Shown piece after piece: positions 2,803 through 46,968 of a stretch of DNA of 64,000 nt. The stretch's first letter is position 1. Each line of letters starts with the position of its first letter. Made by a program: the position numbers and the translations under genes. Below the pieces are notes generated by a model. It worked only from the letters and a program-made list of their open reading frames with translations, was not told the DNA's origin and ran no database searches. This stretch comes from a phage: the NCBI GenBank assembly GCA_025611195.1, contig GCA_025611195.1_4718.2. One strand, written 5' to 3'.

Positions 2803-3822
2803 TTACACCGCCACCTTAGCCTTGATAGCCGGATGTGATTGATATCCGACGAACACAAAGTCTTCGTAACGGTAATCCGTAATACTTTCCGGTTTACGTA
2901 CGATTGTTAGCTTCGGTAATGGATACGGCTCACGGCTGAGCTGCTCTTTAACCTGTTCGAAGTGGTTGTGATAGATGTGGCAATCTCCACCCGTCCACAC
3001 GAACTCACCAACGTCCATATTCAGCTGTTGGGCAAGCATATGCGTCAGCAACGAATATGATGCGATGTTGAACGGTTTCCCGAGCACTGCGTCGCACGAA
3101 CGCTGGTAAAGCTGACAGGATAAGGCACGTGTTGGTACGTTATGCGCATTCAACCAAAGTTCTGTTTCACTGTGTCGTACATCATCCGTAACCCACTGGG
3201 TTCTTAATACGTCATTGCGTTGAACATAACCAACGCGTTCATCGATGGTGAGCTCGTGGGTATAGAACTGATAAAATGAATGGCACGGAGCGAGATGCAT
3301 ATCGTCTAAATCACCTACGTTCCACGCGCTAACGATGATCCGTCGAGAATCGGGGTCTTCTTTAAGCTGGCGCATCACGTTTGCAATCTGATCGTGATGT
3401 CTAACATACACGAGGTGTTTTAGCATACCGTCATTAAGAATGCCGCAATACTCATAGCCGCGTTGCATCAACTCACGAGTACGTTCTGTATCGTGCGGAA
3501 CAACCACTTTGTAGTCGATCCATTCCCGCCATTGTTTGCCGTAAATCGGTCCTAGATTCCCTTCTTCGTCAGCCCACTCATTCCAAATACGAACACCGTT
3601 ATCTTGAAGATAAGCAACGTTTGTGTCGCCGTTAAGAAACCAGAGCAGTTCGTGGATAACGCTCTTAAGGTGAATCTTCTTGGTGGTTACCAGCGGGAAC
3701 CCTTTCTTCAAGTCAAAACGCATCTGACGTCCGAATACAGAACGGGTCCCGGTGCCTGTACGATCGGCTTTATCACGGCCGTTATCCATGATGTCTTGCA
3801 AAAGGTCCAAATACTGTTTCAT
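2803..3822 (-). CDS. thyA: thymidylate synthase (ThyA family) with two insertions relative to E. coli ThyA
   Basis: Translation has the ThyA signature: [53 protein letters not shown], catalytic [22 protein letters not shown]; ATG at 3822. Confidence 0.9.
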
Positions 3823-4186: not shown

Positions 4187-4735
4187 TTATTTCACAAGAA
4201 CAGCGAATTCGAGAACGTAAATAGCTTCATCGTCCATCGGATTTGTTGTGGTATAGCCAACGAAGCAATAACCCATATCCACGATAAACTCGCTAAGTTT
4301 ATCGATGACTGATGCCTCGATGCGATCATCAACAGACAGACGACATTTACGGGTTATGTTTTGCCCGCGAGGAACACCAGCCAACACGGATAGAAAATGT
4401 ACGATCCGATTATTGGTTGTGAACTGCACGTAATCATCGTAGTGCTTAAGGTCTTTCATCGCAGACTCTACCGTCATCCGGCGACCAGGTGATACATACT
4501 CAGAATAAGAATAAGCTGCAATCGTGCGGCGGTCTTCAGTGAGGTAAGTATTCCCTTCGGGATGATAGCTCTCGATTGTTCCGTCTTCATAGGCGACGGT
4601 TACAACAGGTGCGCCGTACTCGTCGCGACCGAAATCAATCTTACATTTATTCGAAAGCGGTAGAACTGTACAAGGCTTTGCATTGTTCTCATCGGGGAGA
4701 TCGTAACCACTCATCATTTTCAAGAACATAGACAT
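4187..4735 (-). CDS. hypothetical protein, paralog of 4822..5355
   Basis: Shares M..NNAKP.T..F.RD..G.P...G..P.GN.Y..D..TIA.Y.YS pattern with the adjacent gene. Confidence 0.55.
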   Translation of the reverse strand: MSMFLKMMSGYDLPDENNAKPCTVLPLSNKCKIDFGRDEYGAPVVTVAYEDGTIESYHPEGNTYLTEDRRTIAAYSYSEYVSPGRRMTVESAMKDLKHYDDYVQFTTNNRIVHFLSVLAGVPRGQNITRKCRLSVDDRIEASVIDKLSEFIVDMGYCFVGYTTTNPMDDEAIYVLEFAVLVK

Positions 4736-4821: not shown

Positions 4822-5355
4822 CTACTTAACGATCGCGATGATTTTGCCGCTCGCACCGGCGTAATATGCTGTTAATTCACCAGTAAACAACTCTTGTAAA
4901 AGACGATTTACGTGACTAACAAAGTTAGGATTGTCTGATTTTACAAACTCGATATTGCGCGTTTGTTTTATATCACGATCGATTAAACGGATTTCCAACA
5001 ACGCACAAATAAGGCGATCGTCGAGTTCACCACTCGCATCCAGCACTTCCCCATACTTCGTAGCACGGACGTCCGCATACATACGGTCAACATCATCCTT
5101 CCCAAAACCACAGGAATAGGCATACGTTGCGATGGTGTTACCATTGTCCATCACATAAACGTTACCACCTGGGTAATCGATAAATCGTTGATCCTTATCA
5201 CCATGAGCGACGAACTCCAGTGTCGGTCTACCCATCGAATCACGGTTGAATTCAATTGTGGTCAAGCGATCTGGTACCACATGCAACGTAAATGGTTTCG
5301 CATTGTTACGATCGCTAGTATCGCAGTTGCCCATTACTTTTACAATAACACTCAT
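4822..5355 (-). CDS. hypothetical protein, paralog of 4187..4735
   Basis: Tandem paralogy visible in translation (see 4187..4735). Confidence 0.55.
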   Translation of the reverse strand: MSVIVKVMGNCDTSDRNNAKPFTLHVVPDRLTTIEFNRDSMGRPTLEFVAHGDKDQRFIDYPGGNVYVMDNGNTIATYAYSCGFGKDDVDRMYADVRATKYGEVLDASGELDDRLICALLEIRLIDRDIKQTRNIEFVKSDNPNFVSHVNRLLQELFTGELTAYYAGASGKIIAIVK

Positions 5356-6163: not shown

Positions 6164-7387
6164 TCAGTAGCTTAGACATCCCGTGCTACGCGCCAACGCA
6201 ACGTCATATGCATCCATGATCGCATCACCGATAGCGGTATGACGAATCAACGGAATACCCATGTCTGGATACTCTTTGGTACCTAAGATGGATACCGGTT
6301 TGTCTTGATACGCGGCAATCATCGAACGGATATCCTGAACCTGGTTATAACGACAAACTGGCTTAAAGCCTGCTTTACGGAACCAATGTTCTAATTGAGG
6401 CCAATCTGTTTCACCGCGAGCAAGATAATAGAAGGTATCCTTACCGTAGTATTCGGTCATCTCATCACGGATATTGTTAACAAATGCATTTACTGTAGCA
6501 ATGGCTTCTTTATAGTCCATCACTCCGACATGCTGAAAACAATAGTCGCGCGCTTCCTTCGGTGCTTTGGTTTGCCACCATTCTACCGTGGACTTACTAA
6601 TATCACCGCCATCAGCGATTTGACCGTAAACGTCAGGGAAGATATCTATACGTGGACCGTTAATAACAGATTCTGGATTAGCTAGATCAAAGAACAAGAT
6701 GCCGATTTCCAGCAGTACCCCGTTCTTTTCCAGACTGAGATTCTCCACATCCAGGCAAAACGCAGGTTTCTCTACCGCTGAAAAATCAAAATATTCTTCG
6801 AGGCGCGGCGTTGGTTCGGCGGCGAAAAACGTCTCATGAATGAACTGGGCGAATGTCTTATTCTCTGCTACTAAGTCAATACCCAATTTACTTAGCAGAG
6901 GTATAATTGCACGGTCGTTGTACTCCATTACCACCAACTCTTGGCTTTTGATAGAACGACCAATTGAGTAAAAAAGATGAACGATATCTAACGGTTTGTA
7001 CGGAGCCTCAAAAGTTGTTCCCTGGAACGACTCAGCCAGCGCCTTATGCGTTTCTTCACGATGATTCATCAGTTGGAAAATAGCACAGCGCAGATAATGC
7101 CGTAATGTTATCTCGTGAAGGTGTGATGTATCTTCCTGAAATAACGTCATGAAACCGTGATATGTATAATACTCGCCTCTTTGAATTTCTTCGAGGAGTT
7201 CTTTGTCCCCATTTATTTCCTCTGGTGTTATCGGTTCGATTTGATCATGGATAATATTGAGCAGGTCACTGCCGTGTACCTTAAACAGTTTTTCAACGCT
7301 AAAATCGGGTAATGTCGCAATTGCTGCGTACATTAATGTTTCTGCGGGATTAAGTTCTTTATTGTCAATTGTGATGGTTAAAGCCAT
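6164..7387 (-). CDS. putative DEDDh (DnaQ-like) 3'-5' exonuclease domain protein
   Basis: C-terminal part has FCLDVENLSL (D.E) and HTAIGDAIMDAYDV (H.A..DA) motifs; start moved to ATG at 7387 (MALTITID) with GAGGT RBS. Confidence 0.55.
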   Translation of the reverse strand: MALTITIDNKELNPAETLMYAAIATLPDFSVEKLFKVHGSDLLNIIHDQIEPITPEEINGDKELLEEIQRGEYYTYHGFMTLFQEDTSHLHEITLRHYLRCAIFQLMNHREETHKALAESFQGTTFEAPYKPLDIVHLFYSIGRSIKSQELVVMEYNDRAIIPLLSKLGIDLVAENKTFAQFIHETFFAAEPTPRLEEYFDFSAVEKPAFCLDVENLSLEKNGVLLEIGILFFDLANPESVINGPRIDIFPDVYGQIADGGDISKSTVEWWQTKAPKEARDYCFQHVGVMDYKEAIATVNAFVNNIRDEMTEYYGKDTFYYLARGETDWPQLEHWFRKAGFKPVCRYNQVQDIRSMIAAYQDKPVSILGTKEYPDMGIPLIRHTAIGDAIMDAYDVALARSTGCLSY

Positions 7388-7412
7388 TTTATTATACCTC
7401 ATCGAAATCAAA

Positions 7413-7754
7413 TTAGTTAAATTCAGGTTTATCAGCAGCCAGACCAAGTCCAGCCAGTATTACGTAATCATACCAAGCTTTTACTTTTGCTTTCGCTTCA
7501 TCTAAACTATCTGCGTTGATGTGCGGAAACTCATCGTTGACTGGGAAAGGTAAATCGCAGTCGTAGCTTGTATAGTCTTTCCAACCTTTCCATTCGATAG
7601 TTAGAGAACCAAAAACGGTCTCAGCAACAACGTGGTTATAGCGACATTCTTCACATGGCGTACGCTCTTCCGACCAAACAAGCTCGTGCTGTGCTAAAAG
7701 TTGTTGTACGACCGATAATGGTTGCTCTTCATTAAGTTCGATACTGTCTATCAC
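7413..7754 (-). CDS. hypothetical protein (113 aa)
   Basis: ORF track. Confidence 0.45.
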   Translation of the reverse strand: MIDSIELNEEQPLSVVQQLLAQHELVWSEERTPCEECRYNHVVAETVFGSLTIEWKGWKDYTSYDCDLPFPVNDEFPHINADSLDEAKAKVKAWYDYVILAGLGLAADKPEFN

Positions 7755-12149: not shown

Positions 12150-12707
12150 TTACTCCATCCATACTTCTTCGTCGTAATGATTTTCTATCGCATTACGCCA
12201 AAAACGTACGGTGTCCAAACTAATCGGTGCGTAAAAATGTTGGTCAACGCCTACATTAAGTCCGTTGGCCTTCGCTAACATACAGCGATGAATATGCCCG
12301 AATAGATTGAAGTAGCCCGGGTTTCTTTCGCTGGGTTTATGGCATAGCCAGTAGGATTCGTCATTGCTAATCGGCAATACCAACGGATGTTCATAAACAG
12401 CAGCAAACCCCATACCGAGCAGTTTATCACGCCACGCGTCGAAGCTTAATCCTGTCGCTTTGTATGCGTCTTCGTCCCAATTCCCCATTACCAATTGAAC
12501 CTGGATATCAGAACGAATGGCTTCCACGAACTCGAACTTACCCCAATCACCTAAATGCCACAACACACTGTTCTTTGGAAGATTGTTGATGGCTTTCAGC
12601 ATATGTTGGTTCATATCGGCGACGCTTGCGAACGGACGGCGTGAATACGTCCATGTACGCTCGCTATCGAAATGGGTATCCGATGTAAAGAAGATGGGTG
12701 GGGTCAT
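12150..12707 (-). CDS. calcineurin-like metallophosphoesterase
   Basis: SDTHF, GDWG, GNWD and GHIH motifs in order. Confidence 0.65.
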   Translation of the reverse strand: MTPPIFFTSDTHFDSERTWTYSRRPFASVADMNQHMLKAINNLPKNSVLWHLGDWGKFEFVEAIRSDIQVQLVMGNWDEDAYKATGLSFDAWRDKLLGMGFAAVYEHPLVLPISNDESYWLCHKPSERNPGYFNLFGHIHRCMLAKANGLNVGVDQHFYAPISLDTVRFWRNAIENHYDEEVWME

Positions 12708-13208: not shown

Positions 13209-13895
13209 TTAACACATGATTTCACCATGTTTCTTTTCAACATACGTATAAACATCATCCAAATAAGCAATGAGTTTATCCCGATTTGCACAAAGCGATT
13301 TAATCACCGCAATCTCTTTCATATAAAGCTGCTGACCTAACGCCGGATAAGTAATCCAAGCATAGCCGTCAGGCGCAAATTTAGAAATAAGATAATCGGC
13401 GGTTTCCTGTAGTGCGAACTCTTTACTCATCTGACCGTAACGATGTTCGATTGCACGGATACCAAAACGTTCGCTATCCAGACGACCCATATCCGCCAAA
13501 CGAAGCACCTGAGAAGCAACCGAGCTACGTGGACCGGAGTATGAGGCGCGGTGTTCAGCAATAAGTACACGTATCTCCTCGATGTCTTCTGGTGTGAAAA
13601 TATGTTGCTCGTTACGAAGCAGGATAACCGATGCACGAATACCTCCGATAAGGTGGTGGTACGTTCTGTTTTCGTGGCATGCAATATCATGCATAAAAGC
13701 GGCAGTTAATAGACGACGACGTTCCGTGGGTCTGATGATGCCAACCACATCGGCAAGTTCATTTGCCAATTCGACAACAGCAAGCACGTGTTCTTCTTGA
13801 TGAGCAAGATCATTTTTACGAATATTATCAATTACTTCAGTGCGTGTTTCCTGAGATAAGAAATTTAGACAATCCAACGAATATAAAGATTTCAT
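13209..13895 (-). CDS. putative HD-domain phosphohydrolase
   Basis: H..H ... FMHDI motif pattern; ATG at 13895 with AAGAGGT RBS; TATATTAC promoter motif upstream. Confidence 0.5.
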   Translation of the reverse strand: MKSLYSLDCLNFLSQETRTEVIDNIRKNDLAHQEEHVLAVVELANELADVVGIIRPTERRRLLTAAFMHDIACHENRTYHHLIGGIRASVILLRNEQHIFTPEDIEEIRVLIAEHRASYSGPRSSVASQVLRLADMGRLDSERFGIRAIEHRYGQMSKEFALQETADYLISKFAPDGYAWITYPALGQQLYMKEIAVIKSLCANRDKLIAYLDDVYTYVEKKHGEIMC

Positions 13896-13943
13896 CGCAC
13901 GTACCTCTTTGAATCGGTAGATAGATTAATAGATATTGATTAC

Positions 13944-13968: not shown

Positions 13969-14048
13969 GGATTTGTGTTGGTCCGTTTCGATGCCCATCG
14001 TATTTTATGGATTGTCGAATGACGTCATTTTTAAGGGACATCCCCGAC

Positions 14049-14077
14049 CTCCTCCCCACACCTTTCCTGGGGAGGAG
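14049..14077 (+). terminator. 10-bp hairpin (CTCCTCCCCA / TGGGGAGGAG) followed by TTTTAT, in the 5' leader of the helicase gene
   Basis: Perfect inverted repeat with 9-nt loop then T-run on plus strand; no plus-strand gene upstream. Confidence 0.4.
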
Positions 14078-14111
14078 TTTTATCATACTTTCTATTAATT
14101 CGAGCGCGATT

Positions 14112-16193
14112 ATGTTGGATAGAATCAATCGTTTAATGAACCGAATGACGGTTAAAAATCAGAGTAACAATACCGTGCATATCGGGGGTATCGATGCGTG
14201 GCGTCTTTCAGATGACATTCAGCGTATATGGGGTACCTCCCGATTTATGAAACACATGTTTCGTAATTTCTCTTCTAGTGGACTCAGTCTCCACAACTTT
14301 TACCTTCCCGATTTCGTTTATATTCTCGAAACGATCATCGAAGCAAAGAATACCCGTAGTAACAAACGCATGCTGAAACACCTTATCGAGATACTACTGC
14401 AGGAAACATGGTTGCAAAATACCACCATCGAGCAGCCTGCAATCCTCGATAAAGCACGCATGAACAAAATGCTAACGCTCTCTTTGTTCGATTATCAAGA
14501 TGAGTTCATCGACATCTATAACCGTAATGTACCTAAGTATCGACTGAAAGGATACGTGTGTGCGATGGGTGCTGGTGCTGGTAAAACGATCACAGCATTG
14601 GCATTAAGCGCCGCAATGAACGTCGATGTATTTGTGGTCTGCTGCCCTAAGAACACCATGCGTTCAGCATGGCAATCCGATGTAAACAAAGCCATCGTTG
14701 ATCCTGCAACAGAAACCGCGTTCTGGTCGGATACAATGCCACCATCACAGCTGCAGAAAAGCGATAAATACTATTTTTTACATTACGAATCGATGGGCTT
14801 ATTAAACGATGTGATGATCAAGCATAAACGCACAGCGAAGCGCGTTCTTATTGTTGTTGACGAAAGCCATAACTTCAACGACAAGAACAGCCAACGTTCC
14901 CAGCGACTGGTTGATCTTGTACAGACAATGCGTCAAACCATGAATGCGGATGTGCACGTCTTGTTTATGTCGGGTACGCCTGTTAAACAGATGGGTTCTG
15001 AGATGATCCCATGTTTAGGTTGTATCGATCCGATGTTCCAAGGACAGGTGGTCGATAGCTTCAAAGCAATTTACGGTTTAACCAGCAGCCGTGCTAACGA
15101 TATCCTCAGACATCGTCTTGGGTTCATGATGCATGTCGTACCTAAAGAGGCTTACCGTAAAACCCGTCCGGAAGTTCAGGACGTTTACGTGAAGCTCCCT
15201 AACGGTAGCGATTATACCATCTCGAGCATTCGTGACGACATGGCGATATTTGTACGCGATCGGGCGAAGTATTACAAGGATAACTGGGGACATTACCGAA
15301 AGATTTTTGATGATGCCTTGGACTACTATCGTAAGACTATTCGTACCGACGGAGAACGTAAAGAGCTATCTCGATACGAATCGATTGTTGCGCGTTTCCA
15401 GAAAGGTTACGATCCCGTCAGAGACAAAGAAGATGCGATGTTCTGCAACGCGTTTGAAAAACGTTCCATCATGCCAGTTCTTCCTTCTGATTTAAGGGTT
15501 GCTTTCAAAGACGCCAAGAGCGTCATCAAGTACGTTGGGTTGAAAATTCAGGGTGAAGCGTTGGCGCGTGTTCTGGGCGCAGCGCGCATTCGGTGTCATG
15601 TCGACATGGTGGAATACATCGACTTCGAAGAGTACATCAATAACGCCGAAGCCAAAGTGTTGATCTTCACATCGTACGTTCAGGTGGTTGAACGCGTCGA
15701 TAACATGCTTCGTGATGCGGGCTTCTTACCGGAACCCATTTACGGGAAGACCAACAAAAACATCAACCAAATACTTGCCCGTCTACGCGACGATCCTGAC
15801 AGCGGTCCCGCTATCGCAACATTTGATAGCTTAGCTGAAGGGGTTCCGATGCTGATGTGTAATGTGGGTCTTTTCCTGAACAACCCGTGGCGCTCATCCG
15901 ATGAAATCCAAGCCATCAGCCGTCTCGATCGTGTAGGGCAAACGCAACCTGTTCGGATTTATCGTTTCATGTTAGATACAGGAAGCGAAGGTAACGTTTC
16001 TACACGTAGCCACGAAATCATGGAGTTAAGTCGGCAGCTTGTTGAAGAAATCACGGGCGTCAAATACGTGGTGAACAAGCAAGATGATGTTAACTTGCAG
16101 GAAACGTTAGCGATGGAAGGATACGATCAATACGTTACCGTAAACACCTCGGAATACGATATTAAACCACGACCTGCGTTCTTGGAATGGTAA
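14112..16193 (+). CDS. SF2 helicase / SNF2-like ATPase
   Basis: Walker A GAGAGKT, DESH (motif II), SGTP (motif III), C-terminal helicase domain; start set to first ATG after the leader hairpin (ORF track 14007 is probably too long). Confidence 0.65.
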   Translation: MLDRINRLMNRMTVKNQSNNTVHIGGIDAWRLSDDIQRIWGTSRFMKHMFRNFSSSGLSLHNFYLPDFVYILETIIEAKNTRSNKRMLKHLIEILLQETWLQNTTIEQPAILDKARMNKMLTLSLFDYQDEFIDIYNRNVPKYRLKGYVCAMGAGAGKTITALALSAAMNVDVFVVCCPKNTMRSAWQSDVNKAIVDPATETAFWSDTMPPSQLQKSDKYYFLHYESMGLLNDVMIKHKRTAKRVLIVVDESHNFNDKNSQRSQRLVDLVQTMRQTMNADVHVLFMSGTPVKQMGSEMIPCLGCIDPMFQGQVVDSFKAIYGLTSSRANDILRHRLGFMMHVVPKEAYRKTRPEVQDVYVKLPNGSDYTISSIRDDMAIFVRDRAKYYKDNWGHYRKIFDDALDYYRKTIRTDGERKELSRYESIVARFQKGYDPVRDKEDAMFCNAFEKRSIMPVLPSDLRVAFKDAKSVIKYVGLKIQGEALARVLGAARIRCHVDMVEYIDFEEYINNAEAKVLIFTSYVQVVERVDNMLRDAGFLPEPIYGKTNKNINQILARLRDDPDSGPAIATFDSLAEGVPMLMCNVGLFLNNPWRSSDEIQAISRLDRVGQTQPVRIYRFMLDTGSEGNVSTRSHEIMELSRQLVEEITGVKYVVNKQDDVNLQETLAMEGYDQYVTVNTSEYDIKPRPAFLEW

Positions 16194-16227: not shown

Positions 16228-16292
16228 ATGCTGCGTTCGCTGCAAAATCGTATGACGTATATGCGTTGTACTTATTAAATAGGACTGAATAC

Positions 16293-17744
16293 ATGAAACT
16301 CAAACAAAGCTGGAAAGACGAACTTCTTGCGTTAGTAAATAGCAAAAACAGTTTACAGCTGACATTAGACGACGTAAAATTTGAACTAACTGAACCGGTA
16401 AGCGAAGTGCCCGGAACGGTTACTGTCACGATCAAACCGAACGATGATAGCCGTTACTTTAACGAGCAGTCTCTGACCTACGTTCGTCGAGACATCGCTA
16501 AAAACTTCACCGGGATCCCGTTACGGGTTATCGTTAAAAATGATACCGCCGTAAAGGATATCATCAACACGATCGCTGAACGTTACGGATTGGTATTTGA
16601 CACAACCGTCGACTTCCTCGAATCCGAGCTGAATAAACAAATTACGTTCGCAGACACCGGTATTAAAGACATCACGGTTCCGGTTGCAAACACGTCTTAT
16701 GTTTGGGCTGGTAATCTTCAGTTCAACATTGCTAACGATACGTTAAGCTTGATTACGATCATCAAGAAAACCGATCTTACGAATCTGGTTTATCTGGATG
16801 GTGTTGAAGCTGATACAACGGGATCGTTACTATTAGCAACGACCTCGGTTATCGACGAAAACGGAAATACCGAAACAACTGAAGGTGTCCTTGACGCCGC
16901 GCACTTCCAGAATGTCCTGAACGTCATGGTTCGTTATGGTGATATTACCAACGAACAAATGCAACAAGCAATGCAGACAATTAACCAAAGCGAAGACGTT
17001 CGTAGAGTAGAGGTGAGATCATACGGTGACGCCGAATTACTGGTAACCACCAAGAAAGATTGGGCTATCGGTAGCCTTAAGGGTGCTATGGCTGTTGGAC
17101 GCGCTTCACCTAAACCGATCCAATACGTTCTTAAAACAAAAGGCGGCAGCATTATATTATCATTAAATGGTTGGACAAATGTTTCCATCGATTGGGGTGA
17201 TGGGAATAAGACGACGGAGGACTCAGTCGATAATGAATATCGGCACAATTATACGGACACTACAGAACGTACGATCGTCGCTACGGGTACCCCTACCAAC
17301 GTTGAAGATACAGAGGTACAGCAAAGCTTCACCGGTGGTAACATTACAGAAATCGTTGACTGGAACAACGGATTACCTAAGGCCCCATCATTACTTGCGG
17401 CGAACAGTTTAACTAAGGTTCCTAATTATATCCCGGCATACTGGACATCGTTAGAAGGTATGTTTACGAGATGTAGCGTTATTAACGACGTGAACATCAC
17501 CAAATGGAACACCCGCAACATTACTTCAATGAAGGACCTCTTCTACGGTTGCGCTGCGTTCAACCAACCGATCGGTTCGTGGGATGTTTCGTCTGTTAAG
17601 AATATCGACAATATGTTGTCTGGATGCTTCGCGTTCAATCAGGATCTGAGTGGTTGGACATTCCCGGCAGGCACTTCACACATTAACTACGACGCCATGA
17701 CCGCCGTGTGGAGTACTGAACACAAACCACACTTCACCGAGTAA
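16293..17744 (+). CDS. putative virion/surface protein with C-terminal DUF285 (BspA-like) repeats
   Basis: C-terminal repeats of the form MF..C..FNQ.I..WDVS.V.N...M; ATG at 16293 with AGGA RBS (ORF track start 16266 is a TTG). Confidence 0.55.
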   Translation: MKLKQSWKDELLALVNSKNSLQLTLDDVKFELTEPVSEVPGTVTVTIKPNDDSRYFNEQSLTYVRRDIAKNFTGIPLRVIVKNDTAVKDIINTIAERYGLVFDTTVDFLESELNKQITFADTGIKDITVPVANTSYVWAGNLQFNIANDTLSLITIIKKTDLTNLVYLDGVEADTTGSLLLATTSVIDENGNTETTEGVLDAAHFQNVLNVMVRYGDITNEQMQQAMQTINQSEDVRRVEVRSYGDAELLVTTKKDWAIGSLKGAMAVGRASPKPIQYVLKTKGGSIILSLNGWTNVSIDWGDGNKTTEDSVDNEYRHNYTDTTERTIVATGTPTNVEDTEVQQSFTGGNITEIVDWNNGLPKAPSLLAANSLTKVPNYIPAYWTSLEGMFTRCSVINDVNITKWNTRNITSMKDLFYGCAAFNQPIGSWDVSSVKNIDNMLSGCFAFNQDLSGWTFPAGTSHINYDAMTAVWSTEHKPHFTE

Positions 17745-39064: not shown

Positions 39065-39740
39065 TCGCTACCTCATACCCGCAGCTTTACCTGCAGCTTC
39101 CGGTGTTACCGGAATGTCCAGAATACATCTTATCCATATTCCAAATGGAACGTAGGACTTCCGCGCTGGATCTCGCTTGAGACCACGTATTCGTTGAACG
39201 TTCTCCTGAACGGAGCTTCGCTGCTGATCGAACATTGTCGTGTACGGTAGGCATCCCCGAAGGGATTGTCATTGAAGCCGCGTACATCCGCTACCTTGTT
39301 TCTACCTTATCGGTTCCTCTTACGAGGCGTAGCGGCCTTAGCCCTTCCCAGCAATTCACGGAATCCAAGCTCTTCCTTTCGGAAGGCAGGGCCTATGATT
39401 AAGCATCCCCGTCGCTGTTATCGACTATATCTTCATCCTCGTTGCGAGGAGTCTCCCGTTTGGGTCTGTGTTTAACAGAGCCTACTCTACTCAACATCGC
39501 GTCTTTCGATAGTCTGTGAGCACACATCTTAACGAACATTCGTGGATTCCTAAACAGGTGAACGTTCTTGTTGAGATGCTTCGCTGCGGATTATTCCCGT
39601 CCTACCTCTTTTACCGTACCCAGTTCATTACGCTGGCCCTCATCTATGTCACCATGATGAGTTGGTGTGTAGTCCGATTACAGAAACTTCCCGTCAATTA
39701 GAGAGTTTTAACTACGTTCCTGTTACCAGAAACCAGATCC
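39065..39740 (-). ncRNA. group I intron-like element B (approximate boundaries)
   Basis: Minus strand carries Q-like AATCCGCAGCGAAG (39592-39579), R-like GCTCACAGACTATCG (39521-39507) and S-like GAAGATATAGTCG (39433-39423); no long ORF. Confidence 0.5.
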
Positions 39741-39814
39741 CGACGGTATCAATAAATCAACGTAAGTTATTGATTTAATTGAAAAACTGAAATCTGCATT
39801 ATCTAAATCTTCAG

Positions 39815-40185
39815 TATGGTTCGCTACTCCATACCCGTACCTCATGTACTGCTTACGTCTTTCACGTAAGGATAGACTATATCTTTCACCCTCAGCATTA
39901 TCTGGTCGGGGCTCCCATTTCGGCGGTCAGATGACCGGTGGTTTCCCACGCCGCTTGGCCCTAACGCCCGTAAGCGATAGTCGTTGAGCACATCTCCGTT
40001 CTGGAGACTTCGCTGCGGATTCCCCAATCCTTGCCGCTTTTACCGTACCTGAATGATTAGTTCAGCCCCACGCTCTGTTCCCAGGCATGGTTGGTGGACG
40101 AGGCTCTAAGTAGGTTCCCGCATTAGAGAGTTCCTCGTAACAACATTTCTGCGTTACTGGGCCTAACGACCCTTTCAAGATCATC
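39815..40185 (-). ncRNA. group I intron-like element A (approximate boundaries)
   Basis: Minus strand carries P/Q-like GGTAAAAGCGGCAAGG...AATCCGCAGCGAAG (40044-40008), R-like GCTCAACGACTATCG (39987-39975), S-like AAAGATATAGTC (39885-39875) and a P9-like hairpin CTTACG-TGAAAGA-CGTAAG. Confidence 0.55.
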
Positions 40186-41411
40186 ACGCTTAACCCGATG
40201 GTGTTATCCTGCGGATCGCGTTTAACCTTGGTGATTTCAAGACATTGGTTACTGCTTCGGTCAAGTGATGGGTTTCGAACAAAGCCGCACACAATCCCAT
40301 CGAACGGTGTATCAGCAATAAGCTCATCATGCAGCTCGCTCATCATCGGATGATAATTACGGACATGTTCCGCAACGAACGCACGTGCTGCTCTCGGTGA
40401 ATAACCGCGATGGAATAACTTGGATTGGATATGTTCTTTATTGGTTAAAGTAAATGGTGCGTATGGGAAATGCAGATGATAATAACGATGGTTCGCTGTT
40501 ATCGAACTGATTACGGTACGCGTGGTGAATGGATGTAATGTACCTAATATGTTTTTACGCGTGATACCTTTCTTCTTACCGATGAACTCATCGAAAATCG
40601 CCGCGTGGTATTGCAGCAGCTTCAATTGCACTTTCGCCATCCAGTTTTCTTTCTTTCTGGCGCTCAAAGGTGTTGTTGGATGATAGATACTATTCAGTGT
40701 ACCAATAGCATCGATCGCACCTTCCATTTTGCTATCTGCATAACGGCCGGTCGGTGTATTTTCGATAACGAACATCATGGCCGCAGGAAAGCTGATATAC
40801 TGACTGAAGAACTTATCACGATGGATACGGATGAATTCTCGTAGCGTGTCAACTTTCTCTGTGTTCTTCGGTCCACGTAATGTGGGTCCTTTATACAAGA
40901 TCTCCATGATGCGATCGAAGTTCTGTATAAAGCTATTTACACCACGCCGTATCCCGAATACATCAAATTGCTGCTCCAGATAGTTCTTGAGTTCAATGGG
41001 TCGTTTTACATTTGGACGGTAACTGGCATCAATGAGCCACGTCATCGTTTCGAAGCTTTTGATATTCAACTCGCTTGCCAGCACGAGATGGACCAACGGG
41101 TTAATGAACGCATCGATTCCTTCAGGGACACGCGCCCAGACCGTCGAACGAATCTCCTGTTCTGCTGGGTAGGTTACAACCGTTTTACAGTTTGGACACA
41201 CCGTGCCGAGCAACTCACCGCGATTGTAGAAACCACAACCACATTGTGGCGTGATATCCAACGTATCGCTGGAGTAAACACGGGTGATAAAACTGTTTAA
41301 TTTCTTCTTCTCTTCGACGACTTTTGTATCGTAATCGTTCAACAAAATCGGCGTAAAGGGAAGTTCTGCGAGCTGTCTATCGAAACTCACGATATCGAGC
41401 ATGATGGCCAT
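40062..41411 (-). CDS. RNA polymerase beta-prime subunit, N-terminal portion; 3' end of this ORF probably reads into intron A
   Basis: Zn-binding CGCGFYNRGELLGTVCPNC; GKKKGITRKNILGTLHPFTTRTVIS aligns with beta-prime [24 protein letters not shown]; ORF ends before any DFDGD catalytic loop. Confidence 0.6.
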   Translation of the reverse strand: MAIMLDIVSFDRQLAELPFTPILLNDYDTKVVEEKKKLNSFITRVYSSDTLDITPQCGCGFYNRGELLGTVCPNCKTVVTYPAEQEIRSTVWARVPEGIDAFINPLVHLVLASELNIKSFETMTWLIDASYRPNVKRPIELKNYLEQQFDVFGIRRGVNSFIQNFDRIMEILYKGPTLRGPKNTEKVDTLREFIRIHRDKFFSQYISFPAAMMFVIENTPTGRYADSKMEGAIDAIGTLNSIYHPTTPLSARKKENWMAKVQLKLLQYHAAIFDEFIGKKKGITRKNILGTLHPFTTRTVISSITANHRYYHLHFPYAPFTLTNKEHIQSKLFHRGYSPRAARAFVAEHVRNYHPMMSELHDELIADTPFDGIVCGFVRNPSLDRSSNQCLEITKVKRDPQDNTIGLSVMILKGSLGPVTQKCCYEELSNAGTYLEPRPPTMPGNRAWG

Positions 41412-41503: not shown

Positions 41504-43399
41504 TTAGAACAGGTTGAATGCTCCACCCATGTTGTTACCACCAACATTCGGACGATCGCTACGTGCATAGATGTTGCCGGAGATGTTACCCAGACCACGA
41601 GCACGTGCTGCTGTGTTACCACGAACGGCGGTACCTGCCAGATGCTGGATGTTCTCAGGACGGATGGTGAAGCCAGCTTCGGCAGCCGCTTCAATCAATG
41701 CCGCAAGCGCATTCGGTTCGAAATCGTAACGCATTGCCCAACCGGTTTGTTCCCAGCTACCAGACAGAACGCGATCGATGATTTCGTGACGAGCAACAAC
41801 ACGCTGAGACATCGACATATCGGTACGGTCGAAGCTGTCTTCCCAAGCTTCTACGGTATCCGGGTTAGTGATGTTCATCATGTACAGATCGTCCATATCA
41901 CGAATATCGTGACGGTTACCGTCCTGGTGGTTGTAGTGACCCAGCGGGATACGGTTACCAGTAGCGTAGACTAACGGTTGGCCGTATTGATATTTCTTGC
42001 TGAAGCAACCCAGGGTGGTATCATCGAATGCACGATAGAGTGCTTTATAGCCTTCGGAGATTTCTTGAACTTTACCGTCAACGTTGCCCGTAAAGATCTT
42101 CTCAGCTGCAGGGATCATACGCAGCAACCAGCTATATTCGCCTTCTTCCGGTACGTCGATAGAAATCAGCAGAGACGGATACAGTACCTGTTGCAGGAAC
42201 TTGTAAATCTGCTCGTTGGTTTGAGTAGACAGATCCAGCGGTGCAGTAACTTCCGGATCCAGTACCATCGCCAGAGCACCCGGGTTATGCGGACCAATAC
42301 CACGAGCAGCGTTGCTGATTAAAGACTGCGCCCACGCCATACCGCTGTTCAGCGTAGCGATGGTACCAATCAGACCCAGCACAAACGTGTTCGGAGTGAA
42401 CGCATCCAGCTCCAGCGGGTAGGCGCTGGTCATCACGTAACGCGGTTGGTACTGTACAGTCGGCGGTACCGGATAACCGTTAACCAGAACAGGACCTTGG
42501 TTGAAGGTCGGGTTCTGCGGGCTGTAGGTCAGGTCAATGTAACCAGTGGTTGCGACCAGGCGCTGTTGACTATCGTAATCGCTCATCGCTTGACGGATAC
42601 GGTTAGAGATAGTTACAGTGATGTCAGAACGCACTGGGTTACCGACGATATCGCTGTCCTGCATACCGCTGGTGTTGTACTGAACGCTGCTGATCGGCTG
42701 ATCGCTTGCCATCATGCCCAGGTTGAACTGCGGCAGACCCAGTTTATCGCCGAGACGGATTTCGATCGCGGTTTGGATTGCGTTATCTGCAGCAGACAGC
42801 AGGGTGGTTGCCAGATGCGCAGATTCAGCAGTGATTTCATTGGTCACCACAGCCAGACCGGCGATACGAACAGTACCGTTAGCCTTACCGCCAATAGCCG
42901 CATACATTGCCGCCATGACTTCGTTGATGAACGTGCCGTTCAGGTTATCAACCCAGGTACGCGGTACCAGAATGTTACCATGCGGACCTTGTTCTTCACG
43001 ACGCGGCAGCGGAGCCAAACCGGCAACCAGCGGAAGCACATAACCGAAGAAGTGGTTATGGTCACCAACTTTTGCACCGCTCATAACAACCAGGGTCGGA
43101 TACGGTACACTGTACTGGTTAGGATCGACGGTCACCATGATGAAGTCGTCTTTGAACCCTTTATCTTCCAGTTCTTTCTCCATCAGACGACGGAGATTCA
43201 GTACCTGCTCGGAGCCAGTATTACGGCTAATACGACGGCTCAGTGTACGGTTGATCGTACGCATCGTATGAGTTACTTTAGGCTGGCCAGCAAAATCTGC
43301 AGCGGTTTCCAGCGCCTCATCAGCACGTTGTGCGGTGCGGGTTTCAGCTGCACGAATTTCTACATTATCGTTACCGTTATTACGTACGTCTAAGCCCAT
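41504..43399 (-). CDS. candidate chimallin (ChmA) phage-nucleus shell protein; alternative: major virion structural protein
   Basis: 631 aa with low-complexity N- and C-terminal tails; AAGAGGAA RBS; TATATTAC early-promoter motif upstream; strong terminator downstream; PhuZ encoded 8 kb away. Identity not verifiable by eye. Confidence 0.4.
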   Translation of the reverse strand: MGLDVRNNGNDNVEIRAAETRTAQRADEALETAADFAGQPKVTHTMRTINRTLSRRISRNTGSEQVLNLRRLMEKELEDKGFKDDFIMVTVDPNQYSVPYPTLVVMSGAKVGDHNHFFGYVLPLVAGLAPLPRREEQGPHGNILVPRTWVDNLNGTFINEVMAAMYAAIGGKANGTVRIAGLAVVTNEITAESAHLATTLLSAADNAIQTAIEIRLGDKLGLPQFNLGMMASDQPISSVQYNTSGMQDSDIVGNPVRSDITVTISNRIRQAMSDYDSQQRLVATTGYIDLTYSPQNPTFNQGPVLVNGYPVPPTVQYQPRYVMTSAYPLELDAFTPNTFVLGLIGTIATLNSGMAWAQSLISNAARGIGPHNPGALAMVLDPEVTAPLDLSTQTNEQIYKFLQQVLYPSLLISIDVPEEGEYSWLLRMIPAAEKIFTGNVDGKVQEISEGYKALYRAFDDTTLGCFSKKYQYGQPLVYATGNRIPLGHYNHQDGNRHDIRDMDDLYMMNITNPDTVEAWEDSFDRTDMSMSQRVVARHEIIDRVLSGSWEQTGWAMRYDFEPNALAALIEAAAEAGFTIRPENIQHLAGTAVRGNTAARARGLGNISGNIYARSDRPNVGGNNMGGAFNLF

Positions 43400-44814: not shown

Positions 44815-46968
44815 TTATTCTGCAGTTTCTTGCTTCGGTAAATAACTTGCTGCGATGTCTTGGGCCAACAATGTATTGTTTTTATTCGAGATGAAAATAC
44901 CGTAACTTTCCATTAACGCATAATACGAACGAACGAGCGTAGAGATCAGTCGACGAATATCCATACCTTGAATAAAGATATCAGGAAGCCCGGAGGCTTC
45001 GATCACTGGTAATGGTATCGTTAAGTTGCTTATCGTTTTCTTATCGTTACGTACAATCCAATCACGGAAACGTTGTTGTAACCCTTTATCCTCCCAGGAA
45101 TCAATCCAATCATTAAGAAGCGTTTTGTTCTTCGTCGCCAACGGTACACGAACCCCAACATAAGGTGGTTCGGGGCAATGGCCGTACGATTGAGCAAACA
45201 CTTCTTCCCACATATCGTAAGACTGTTTCGTTACCGCAACATGTGGTTTCACTTTAACACGTGTTAAGAAATCCGGATCGCCACGTTTCATTGATTCAAC
45301 GATTTCGTTCTCTAGTGAGATAATATCGTCAAGAACCAATCGAATGCTGATCTTCTCATTACGTAACAGCTTATCCATTATACCACACATCATGCGTTCA
45401 ACACGTTGGACGATTATTTTTGGTGCTGACGCATCACGCATAACAGGACCTTTCAACTCCAGCTTCGGTGGGTTGATGGGAACCCCTTCACGCATGGTCA
45501 TGTATCCGTAATAGTTTTTACCCATCGAGGTTAACGACAGAATTAAGAACATATATTCGTTCTTCATTTCCATTACGTACATATGCTCTTTCGCTACACC
45601 GATATTACCAGAACACATCGCCATCAGATGAACCGTAATCTGCGTAACCAGATAGATAAGCGTGTTTGCTAAGCGCGTCGAAATCGGATTGATCTCCATA
45701 TTTCCAAATCGCCACTGAACCCACTCCTGGCAGGTAAACACCGTCGAGTCGGTATCAGACAACACACCCACTTCACGGATTGCTGACGGAAAAGCATAAA
45801 CACCAGCCGGTTGGTTCTCGGTACGCCAGAACGCCTTAATTAAATCAGCGTAGCTTTGGATGCGTTGCAACATTAATTTTGTCGTTGCTGCAGTAAGACG
45901 ATAACCAAGTTCATTTCCTTTTTCTAGCGCTACGTAAATCGCTTCCCCGTTCAAGAACTCCGTGCATTGTGCTGTAATCCAAGCGACCGTGTTGTTATCC
46001 ATGGAAGCAATAATGGCTTTAGCCTCTTCCATCGTTTCAACAGGCTCGGATGCCAGTTCACATAACGAGTCAAGAAAATCTCGAACAAATTCAGGATTAA
46101 GCTCACGTAACGAGTACAGGTTATTGCTGTACATGTAGCAGGCGCGTTCCAACGGCGTTAAACCGGTAATTAGCTCCCGGATGGTCAGTTCTTTCTCTGG
46201 GTCGAAAATATATCGATGCAAGCATTTCGATACGTTAGCCCAAACCTCTTCCGGTGTAGGGTAATGCAGTTTGTATTTTACCATTACCTGCTCAATGGCT
46301 TTACGATCGCTGTTACGGACAATGCTCACAATGTTTTCAATTGCGATATCGCAATCGTAATAATGGAAATTACCCGCAAGGAAGCGTTCGTTGTTCGCAT
46401 TGGCTGAACCTGAAGCACAGCGACATGTTGTCGTTAAACTTGGATGCGCGATCGGATTATAAAAAGGGTTAAACTTGGATGCCTGTGTTCCTGATAAACT
46501 GTTGTTGTCTAACTTGGTGTTGGTTTGTCGTTTATCGTGTAACTCAGCTTCGTCTTTACGTCCATGGGCTTGCGCTATCGACATTTGTTTCTTTTGTTTC
46601 TTACGCAACTTACCGTTTTCAACCGCAAAGTCGCTTAGCACACTGGAACGTGTTTCACGCGGATAACAGTTAGCCCATACCGGCGTGATAATTAAATTAT
46701 TTTCTTTAATATCATTGAAGTATTGGCTGAACTTGATGACTTCTTTTTCTCGGTTTCCTTCAGTACGCTGTGTTAGTACAAGGCAGTCGGGATCAACCAT
46801 CCCGTATTTTCCACCAGGACTAACCGTATCAAGAACAAACTGCAACGCTTCCCGCTGAGAAATCCCACGCATGCGCATTAAGAACAGGGTATAATCCTGT
46901 ACCGCTTCTTTGGTCATATCCAACGTACGACCATATCCGTTTTCATCGTAAAAGAACGGATTTTCCAT
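44815..46968 (-). CDS. hypothetical protein (717 aa)
   Basis: ORF track; contains an SDTDS segment but no other polymerase motifs could be confirmed by eye. Confidence 0.55.
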   Translation of the reverse strand: MENPFFYDENGYGRTLDMTKEAVQDYTLFLMRMRGISQREALQFVLDTVSPGGKYGMVDPDCLVLTQRTEGNREKEVIKFSQYFNDIKENNLIITPVWANCYPRETRSSVLSDFAVENGKLRKKQKKQMSIAQAHGRKDEAELHDKRQTNTKLDNNSLSGTQASKFNPFYNPIAHPSLTTTCRCASGSANANNERFLAGNFHYYDCDIAIENIVSIVRNSDRKAIEQVMVKYKLHYPTPEEVWANVSKCLHRYIFDPEKELTIRELITGLTPLERACYMYSNNLYSLRELNPEFVRDFLDSLCELASEPVETMEEAKAIIASMDNNTVAWITAQCTEFLNGEAIYVALEKGNELGYRLTAATTKLMLQRIQSYADLIKAFWRTENQPAGVYAFPSAIREVGVLSDTDSTVFTCQEWVQWRFGNMEINPISTRLANTLIYLVTQITVHLMAMCSGNIGVAKEHMYVMEMKNEYMFLILSLTSMGKNYYGYMTMREGVPINPPKLELKGPVMRDASAPKIIVQRVERMMCGIMDKLLRNEKISIRLVLDDIISLENEIVESMKRGDPDFLTRVKVKPHVAVTKQSYDMWEEVFAQSYGHCPEPPYVGVRVPLATKNKTLLNDWIDSWEDKGLQQRFRDWIVRNDKKTISNLTIPLPVIEASGLPDIFIQGMDIRRLISTLVRSYYALMESYGIFISNKNNTLLAQDIAASYLPKQETAE

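Follow-up and report, generated by a model that had tools for sequence, protein, structure and literature searches.

What does a 3'-5' exonuclease do in a nucleus-forming phage when half of its length is taken up by a domain that appears to occur in no other phage group? The question is raised by a gene on the minus strand of a 64,000-nucleotide (nt) stretch of phage DNA (GenBank assembly GCA_025611195.1, contig GCA_025611195.1_4718.2), hereafter called the window. The gene, taken from a list of open reading frames (ORFs) with its start read from the sequence, encodes a protein of 407 amino acids (aa) in which a DEDDh exonuclease domain carries an N-terminal fusion partner of unknown function, as the initial annotation had correctly described it. 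The gene boundaries proposed there were also right: the ATG codon is preceded by a GAGG box and serves as the start in all relatives too. A TTG start at position 7447, given in the mechanical ORF list, was rejected because it overlaps the upstream gene, whose stop codon lies at about position 7413, and because the GAGG box precedes the ATG.

The source of the window is a Goslarvirus, a nucleus-forming jumbo phage of Escherichia coli, Salmonella and Shigella, because the 4 kb around the gene show 91% DNA identity to Escherichia phage vB_EcoM_Goslar and because the window encodes chimallin and a divergent family-B DNA polymerase. No other phage record matched these 4 kb. The ortholog in Goslar is gp147 (YP_009820832.1 / UniProt A0A482GDY9), with 85% aa identity. 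The protein is identical to NCBI HCP6916015.1, which is named "3'-5' exoribonuclease [Escherichia coli]" and located on a 103-kb contig of a bacterial assembly. This origin agrees with a survey in which assemblies of E. coli, Salmonella and Shigella turned out to conceal about 237 Goslarvirus genomes (PMC12768965).

The identity of the catalytic half as a DEDDh exonuclease of the DexA/Rv2179c family is near certain. Both motifs noticed in the initial annotation, D.E and H.A..DA, were found (D213-V-E215 and H383-T-A-I-G-D388-A) and, together with D328, make up the full DEDDh set, the DEDDh type being assigned because the Exo III motif carries histidine H383. Residues D213, D328, H383 and D388 were invariant, and E215 was at least 90% conserved, among 37 homologs with identities down to 21-25%. 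The expected profile match to the DEDD family was obtained twice, with Pfam PF16473 (Rv2179c-like; 52.8 bits against a cut-off of 27 bits, E = 5e-14, aa 211-393, model positions 4-170 of 177) and with phrog_255 ('exonuclease', E = 1.4e-26). When PDB sequences were searched with a profile built from five diverse family members, the best match was phage T4 DexA (8KEL/8KEN; E = 1.3e-12, DexA residues 4-204 of 227 aligned), entry 8KEL being T4 DexA according to its paper (PMC12153337). Foldseek comparison of our second AlphaFold2 (AF2) model likewise returned 8kel_A as the best match (E = 3.7e-8, TM-score 0.72, root-mean-square deviation 3.5 Å), followed by RNase T, Cap18, CRN-4, TREX1 and Rv2179c structures, all of them DEDDh enzymes. 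That model, built from 37 sequences including distant single-domain homologs, reached a predicted local distance difference test (pLDDT) score of 87-95 in the nuclease domain; it replaced a first model built from 21 near-identical sequences, in which the pLDDT of this domain was below 50.

The description of the domain as DnaQ-like holds at the superfamily level and fails at the family level. Pfam gave no match to the DnaQ/RNase_T (PF00929) or PolB exonuclease (PF03104) families, PF16473 being the sole match at E <= 10, and the PDB DnaQ entry 8h18 matched the family profile over the Exo I motif only (E = 0.002). The proposed comparison with the DnaQ, RNase T and oligoribonuclease families revealed no sequence membership; RNase T and oligoribonuclease gave no sequence match in Pfam or in the PDB profile search, and RNase T as a secondary fold match in Foldseek (E = 2.7e-4, target-normalised TM-score [TMt] 0.60) reflects superfamily-level similarity. 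Moreover, the domain spans approximately aa 206-400 and thus the C-terminal half of the protein, not the C-terminal third. The catalytic domain as such was known already and is annotated in RefSeq.

An enzyme of this family might act on RNA. As a cytoplasmic, Rv2179c-like exoribonuclease, the protein would trim or degrade host messenger, ribosomal or transfer RNA or exported phage transcripts from the 3' end, its N-terminal domain tethering it to an RNA-handling partner. PF16473 is named for an exoribonuclease, as is the NCBI record, the RNase T and Rv2179c structures (4hvj, 4hec) are also fold matches, and the cytoplasm of cells infected by these phages holds RNA and no phage DNA. However, DexA, a DNase, is clearly closest (profile E = 1e-12, with Rv2179c not retrieved at E <= 1; Foldseek E = 3.7e-8 versus 0.04 for 4hvj), and an acidic N-terminal domain is a poor candidate for RNA binding. 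We therefore regard this role as unlikely; the RNA-processing nuclease suggested in the initial annotation is still conceivable but gained no specific support, the closest relative being a DNase.

The N-terminal part of the protein proved shorter than the 250 aa first assigned to it. It consists of about 188 folded aa, predicted in the AF2 models to form a short beta-hairpin followed by about 11 helices, and of a low-confidence linker of about 17 aa, approximately 205 aa in all. Because the pLDDT falls below 50 at aa 189-198 of the linker and the predicted TM-score (pTM) is 0.52, the two domains are modelled as lying on a flexible tether. The N-terminal domain is acidic (isoelectric point approximately 4.9 here and 4.6-6.2 across alleles), which argues weakly against nucleic-acid binding.

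Consistent with the earlier statement that this part lacks a recognisable motif, family, profile and structure searches all failed to connect it to known proteins. No match was obtained in Pfam, PADLOC or NCBIfam, or in PHROGs with 10 members as queries. The best hit of its profile among PDB sequences had E = 0.42, and Foldseek searches of the PDB with two models returned nothing better than E > 0.4 and TM < 0.2 (TetR and 14-3-3 helical noise), while in BFVD the Goslar ortholog was the sole match. A profile hidden Markov model (HMM) of the domain, run against 1.84 billion representative proteins, retrieved only its own family from Goslar-like phages, apart from two long repetitive proteins whose matches were treated as chance. 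Within the window, a six-frame hmmsearch detected no paralog below E = 0.6. On this sequence evidence, the domain appears restricted to this phage group.

Outside the Goslarviruses, all nuclease homologs found were single-domain proteins of 190-250 aa, encoded by RAY (gp064), RisingSun (gp124), jumbo phage SA002, many unrelated small phages and the dexA genes of KVP40-like phages; it was the RisingSun homolog that tied the family to these annotated dexA genes in tblastn searches. Unlike the stand-alone form of approximately 160-250 aa, the protein of the window has about 205 extra N-terminal residues, an architectural variant whose catalytic domain still belongs to the PF16473 family. T4 DexA, the best solved match by both profile and fold, shares the DEDDh fold and the catalytic residues and is a non-core phage nuclease that scavenges host DNA. 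It differs in being a single-domain protein of 227 aa with about 20% sequence identity, whereas the Goslarvirus protein carries the additional N-terminal module, and in discriminating 5-hydroxymethylcytosine DNA via a dimer/tetramer switch that has no known counterpart in the Goslarvirus protein. Rv2179c of Mycobacterium tuberculosis (4HVJ/4HEC), the founder of PF16473, has the same fold (TMt 0.61-0.71) but is a cellular, single-domain exoribonuclease of approximately 165 aa and a more distant match than DexA.

Among jumbo phages, Erwinia phage RAY gp064 (E = 7e-9), RisingSun gp124 (E = 4e-11) and Salmonella phage SA002 ACSA002_0540 (E = 8e-9) are homologs of the C-terminal domain that share its catalytic residues, but they comprise 211-250 aa without the N-terminal domain and are 25-30% identical to the Goslarvirus protein. 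RAY and RisingSun are cited as chimallin-encoding relatives. Goslar gp147 has the same two-domain architecture as the protein of the window; it is annotated as '3'-5' exoribonuclease' from its PF16473 match, with the N-terminal domain and its dimorphism unrecorded. The closest single-domain relative of the nuclease (P0024, 48% identity) is encoded on a Logan contig of SRR27947104 (L007 1-7730), and relatives lie on contigs of 255-259 kb. The P0024 gene is located two genes upstream of a gene for an AcrVA2-like protein and near a thymidylate synthase gene that is apparently split by a GIY-YIG/I-TevI-like homing endonuclease. An origin of the N-terminal domain by fusion with the upstream gene of such single-domain relatives was rejected, RAY gp063 and the ORF preceding P0024 being unrelated to it (hhalign probability about 1% or less).

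The full-length proteins fall into two groups, type A with 407-414 aa, which includes the window and Goslar, and type B with 437-442 aa. A scan of IMG/VR matched Goslar and one type-B genome only. Between the types, the nuclease halves are about 91% identical at the protein level and the N-terminal halves about 20%, and the acidic type-B linker is approximately 30 aa longer than that of type A. Because a profile-profile comparison aligned both N-terminal domains colinearly over 181 columns (hhalign, E = 1e-4, probability 58%), the two probably share a very ancient common origin and are not unrelated insertions.

The two types behave as exchangeable cassettes. L005, a type-B phage of a Salmonella assembly, aligns collinearly with the window, its neighbouring proteins being 62-97% identical to those encoded there. 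The sliding DNA identity between both genomes is 0.8-0.9, drops to approximately 0.4 from the start codon to the linker, and then returns to at least 0.84. In segment identity matrices of ten genomes, the N-terminal segment showed 42-45% DNA identity between types and the flanks 83-97%, and neither the upstream flank, the nuclease domain nor the downstream flank sorted by cassette type; the flanks of one type-B genome (L017) were even 95-97% identical to those of four type-A genomes. Because flanks and nuclease domain do not partition by type, the pattern is one of cassette exchange between nearly identical backbones, with 90-97% DNA identity, and not of clade divergence. Discordant synonymous divergence (dS) between the two domains in several pairs, such as 0.405 in the N-terminal and 0.103 in the C-terminal domain of L012 versus L013, likewise points to cassette exchange. 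A dependence of cassette type on phage clade was ruled out by the same lack of partitioning of the flanks and the C-terminal domain, and a dependence on host genus by the presence of both types in E. coli, Salmonella and Shigella assemblies. The literature searched contained no mention of the fusion to a dimorphic N-terminal domain. The catalytic half is routine, and what is new is its fusion to a lineage-restricted, dimorphic and recombining domain.

Within types, the ratio of nonsynonymous to synonymous substitution rates (omega) was 0.14-0.50 in the N-terminal domain and 0.03-0.19 in the nuclease domain, and the column entropies of the two domains were 0.30 and 0.14 in type A and 0.60 and 0.11 in type B. 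The N-terminal domain evolves 2-10 times as fast as the nuclease domain, and it is under purifying selection overall (omega approximately 0.3). Local ratios of nonsynonymous to synonymous polymorphism (pN/pS) of about 1, calculated from 4-6 sequences only, were found at type-A codons 141-160, a low-confidence region predicted to be a surface loop, and in the type-B linker; as a sign of local hypervariability they are suggestive at most. Given omega below 1 and a folded AF2 model, this is a real, constrained, folded domain with hypervariable patches, and not junk or a mis-annotated fusion.

Such a pattern would be best accounted for by a nuclease working at a conflict interface, which destroys 3'-ended nucleic acid of a host defence system or of a competing phage, while its dimorphic N-terminal domain docks onto a variable target or escapes recognition or inhibition. 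Such a role would give a reason for the maintenance of two cassettes within one host range. The exchange of the cassette among backbones that hardly differ, the co-circulation of both types in the same host genera, the pN/pS of about 1 in the predicted surface loop and the restriction of the orphan domain to one lineage all favour it, as do the AcrVA2-like gene near the single-domain relative of L007 and the finding that DexA-type enzymes are known on both sides of phage-host conflict, as the HREX system (PMC12153337). However, no PADLOC match or similarity to known anti-defence proteins was found, the mean omega is approximately 0.3 rather than above 1, and the pN/pS windows draw on a handful of sequences. 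Furthermore, jumbo-phage genomes are mosaic in general, and other neighbouring ORFs vary too. On balance, we consider a conflict nuclease a rather unlikely explanation.

We infer instead, and give it about an even chance of being correct, that the protein is a cytoplasmic 3'-5' exonuclease that turns nucleic-acid fragments into mononucleotides and whose N-terminal adaptor engages a variable partner. By two-metal hydrolysis, the enzyme would remove nucleotides singly from free 3' ends, acting in the host cytoplasm and not in the phage nucleus. There it would attack pieces of the broken-down host chromosome, and perhaps RNA as well, and the released mononucleotides would feed the neighbouring HD phosphohydrolase, metallophosphoesterase and thymidylate synthase. 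The N-terminal domain would be neither nucleic-acid-binding nor catalytic; as an adaptor between proteins, it would target the nuclease, regulate it or make it oligomerise, and its partner would itself be variable.

Several observations are consistent with this scavenging role. The scavenging of host DNA is one role of T4 DexA, intron homing being another (PMC12153337), and by 60 minutes post infection Goslar has broken down most of the host chromosome (PMC9891218). The green fluorescent protein fusion of RAY gp064, the homolog of the nuclease domain described above, was found in the cytoplasm together with metabolic enzymes, replication taking place inside the phage nucleus (PMC10299810). The gene of the window is located within a long same-strand run, with the HD phosphohydrolase and metallophosphoesterase genes upstream and the thymidylate synthase gene further downstream, and thymidylate synthase is also encoded near the single-domain homologs in SA002 and L007.

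A number of points weigh against the scavenging enzyme with a variable adaptor. The sequence does not tell a DNA from an RNA substrate, and Rv2179c, after which the Pfam family is named, degrades RNA as an exoribonuclease. Placing the enzyme in the cytoplasm is an extrapolation from a single-domain homolog of another genus with 25% identity, and the added N-terminal domain could change the localisation. The pTM of 0.52 leaves the arrangement of the two domains relative to each other unpredicted, and the nucleotide-metabolism genes are only loosely linked to the exonuclease gene, several ORFs of unknown function lying in between. A literature search on Goslar gp147 or a Goslar exoribonuclease found nothing. 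Finally, two cassettes look like an arms-race interface, which is not obviously expected of a housekeeping salvage enzyme.

The presence of a divergent family-B polymerase in the window raises the question of proofreading. PhiKZ-type polymerases of this kind lack a fused 3'-5' exonuclease, one being encoded elsewhere (Iyer et al., PMC7824862), and the initial annotation had suggested that the protein could be a stand-alone proofreading subunit; the N-terminal domain would then dock the exonuclease onto the polymerase. The basis of this suggestion is real, but the role itself is highly improbable. The nuclease is DexA-like and not of the DnaQ or PolB-exonuclease type, and its family is patchy and accessory among nucleus-forming phages: tblastn with three family members returned no PhiKZ, PhiPA3 or 201phi2-1 record (the sensitivity of tblastn is limited and absence is unproven), yet PhiKZ-type phages carry the same polymerase. 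Moreover, the RAY homolog is cytoplasmic, whereas replication is nuclear (PMC10299810), two 20%-identical cassettes on otherwise identical backbones would be unexpected for a domain that contacts the replisome, and about 38 kb separate the gene, which is part of a nucleotide-metabolism cluster, from that of the polymerase.

Goslar gp068 is a better candidate for the separate exonuclease. This protein of 499 aa, encoded outside the window (NC_048170.1 79690-81189; L020:29690-31189), matched phrog_3011 ('DNA polymerase') with E = 2.4e-150, gave in a Pfam scan a weak, below-cut-off match to the PolB exonuclease family (PF03104, E = 0.008), and was annotated by its authors with a PolB exo1 domain. 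From its sequence, gp068 is probably the separate exonuclease part of a split divergent family-B polymerase. The exonuclease-less polymerase of nucleus-forming phages poses a proofreading question to which the gene studied here is probably not the answer. In Goslar, a NUMOD1/HNH homing endonuclease gene adjoins gp068.

As intron homing is the second known role of T4 DexA (PMC12153337), the protein might alternatively be an intranuclear exonuclease of recombination or intron homing, with the N-terminal domain licensing nuclear import and the cassettes conferring phage-specific selectivity. Two group I introns in the RNA polymerase beta' gene of the window, the HNH and NUMOD homing endonucleases carried by Goslar, and the divergence of import selectivity between related chimalliviruses (PMC12908238) agree with such a function. 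We nevertheless deem it improbable: the single-domain RAY homolog, which provides the family's only localisation data, is cytoplasmic, and no import signal has been defined for Goslar with which the N-terminal domain could be compared. Both introns are ORF-less and located in tandem at the end of the first exon of the beta' gene (ORF 40062..41411). Goslar has the first intron without the second 368-nt element, and its HNH homing endonuclease gp186 (about 1.07 kb) is absent from the window.

The coordinates of the gene, its domains and the surrounding features are given in Table 1. At its 3' end, the gene differs from most relatives by a 1-nt frame difference that places the last 7 codons in the other frame, so that the protein ends in RSTGCLSY (stop) here and in RSMAxSKLLK (stop) in most relatives, resulting in 407 aa here and 409 aa in Goslar gp147. 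Because 407-aa members recur in clusters on many independent contigs (for example, P0047 on 22 contigs), this tail represents a genuine allele, and a sequencing error is ruled out.

Table 1. Features of the exonuclease gene and of its surroundings, in positions of the window.
Feature	Position	Strand	Basis
Whole gene, two-domain exonuclease	6164..7387	-	ORF list; 85% aa identity to Goslar gp147
Shine-Dalgarno GAGG	7397..7400	-	9 nt upstream of ATG at 7387, read from sequence
N-terminal orphan domain (aa 1-188)	6824..7387	-	AF2 pLDDT 70-89
Interdomain linker (aa 189-205), predicted flexible	6773..6823	-	pLDDT <50 at aa 189-198
DexA/Rv2179c-type DEDDh 3'-5' exonuclease domain (aa 206-400)	6188..6772	-	PF16473, phrog_255, DexA profile and Foldseek
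Exo I motif D213-x-E215	6743..6751	-	D213 invariant, E215 at least 90% conserved, 37 homologs
Exo II aspartate D328	6404..6406	-	Invariant, 37 homologs
Exo III motif H383-x4-D388	6224..6241	-	Invariant, 37 homologs
Exchangeable cassette	6757..7408	-	DNA identity to type-B phages about 0.4, both flanks 0.8-0.97; sliding identity and segment identity matrices
C-terminal tail variant	6164..6187	-	Alignments; 1-nt frame difference versus most relatives
Thymidylate synthase	2803..3822	same-strand run	Downstream, beyond two predicted terminators
Metallophosphoesterase	12150..12707	same-strand run	Upstream of exonuclease gene
HD phosphohydrolase	13209..13895	same-strand run	Upstream of exonuclease gene
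Group I intron 1, ORF-less	39415-39781	-	Rfam RF00028, 46.9 bits, E = 2e-10 (below the 50-bit gathering score)
Group I intron 2, ORF-less	39853-40189	-	Rfam RF00028, 29.6 bits, E = 3e-5 (below the 50-bit gathering score)
Chimallin	41504..43399		PF25677, E = 5e-28
Divergent family-B DNA polymerase	44815..46968		PF20286, E = 4.5e-204

Further observations concern the neighbourhood of the gene. Two adjacent minus-strand ORFs of unknown function, at 4187-4735 (182 aa) and 4822-5355 (177 aa), have the appearance of paralogs that have diverged, since the homolog of one of them in L005 also matches the other with 31-40% identity. Together with ORFs located further downstream, the pair belongs to the genes that vary more strongly from one Goslarvirus genome to the next. 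The type-B, Salmonella-associated L005 also has an ORF of 109 aa (13581-13910) without a counterpart in the window; therefore, the neighbourhood varies in gene content beyond the exonuclease cassette. On the plus strand, opposite to most of the region, positions 16266-17744 encode a protein of 492 aa with DUF7941 and DUF285 (BspA-type leucine-rich repeat) domains, adjoining a SNF2/DEAD helicase gene at 14007-16193. This repeat protein resembles a surface protein, an unusual feature in the early region of a phage.

Mechanistically, the exonuclease holds no surprise. Its significance lies in a sharply bounded, exchangeable orphan domain mounted on a highly conserved nuclease, with two forms co-circulating in the same hosts, a type of pattern that usually marks a molecular interface under conflict. 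It is conceivable, if on present evidence rather unlikely, that the N-terminal domain is a dimorphic specificity module under balancing selection, which sends the conserved DexA-type nuclease to a variable partner or protects it against one; candidates for this partner would be a protein of host defence, a rival phage or the selective import machinery of the phage nucleus. If so, the two cassettes would be alternative 'addresses' in an ongoing conflict, and they would represent a retargeting of a housekeeping nuclease that is undescribed for nucleus-forming phages. Since Goslar is a tractable E. coli model in which CRISPRi-ART knock-down works, and genomes of about 237 relatives can be drawn on, what the N-terminal domain does is directly testable, and the answer could shed light on the targeting of cytoplasmic enzymes by these phages or on the competition among them.

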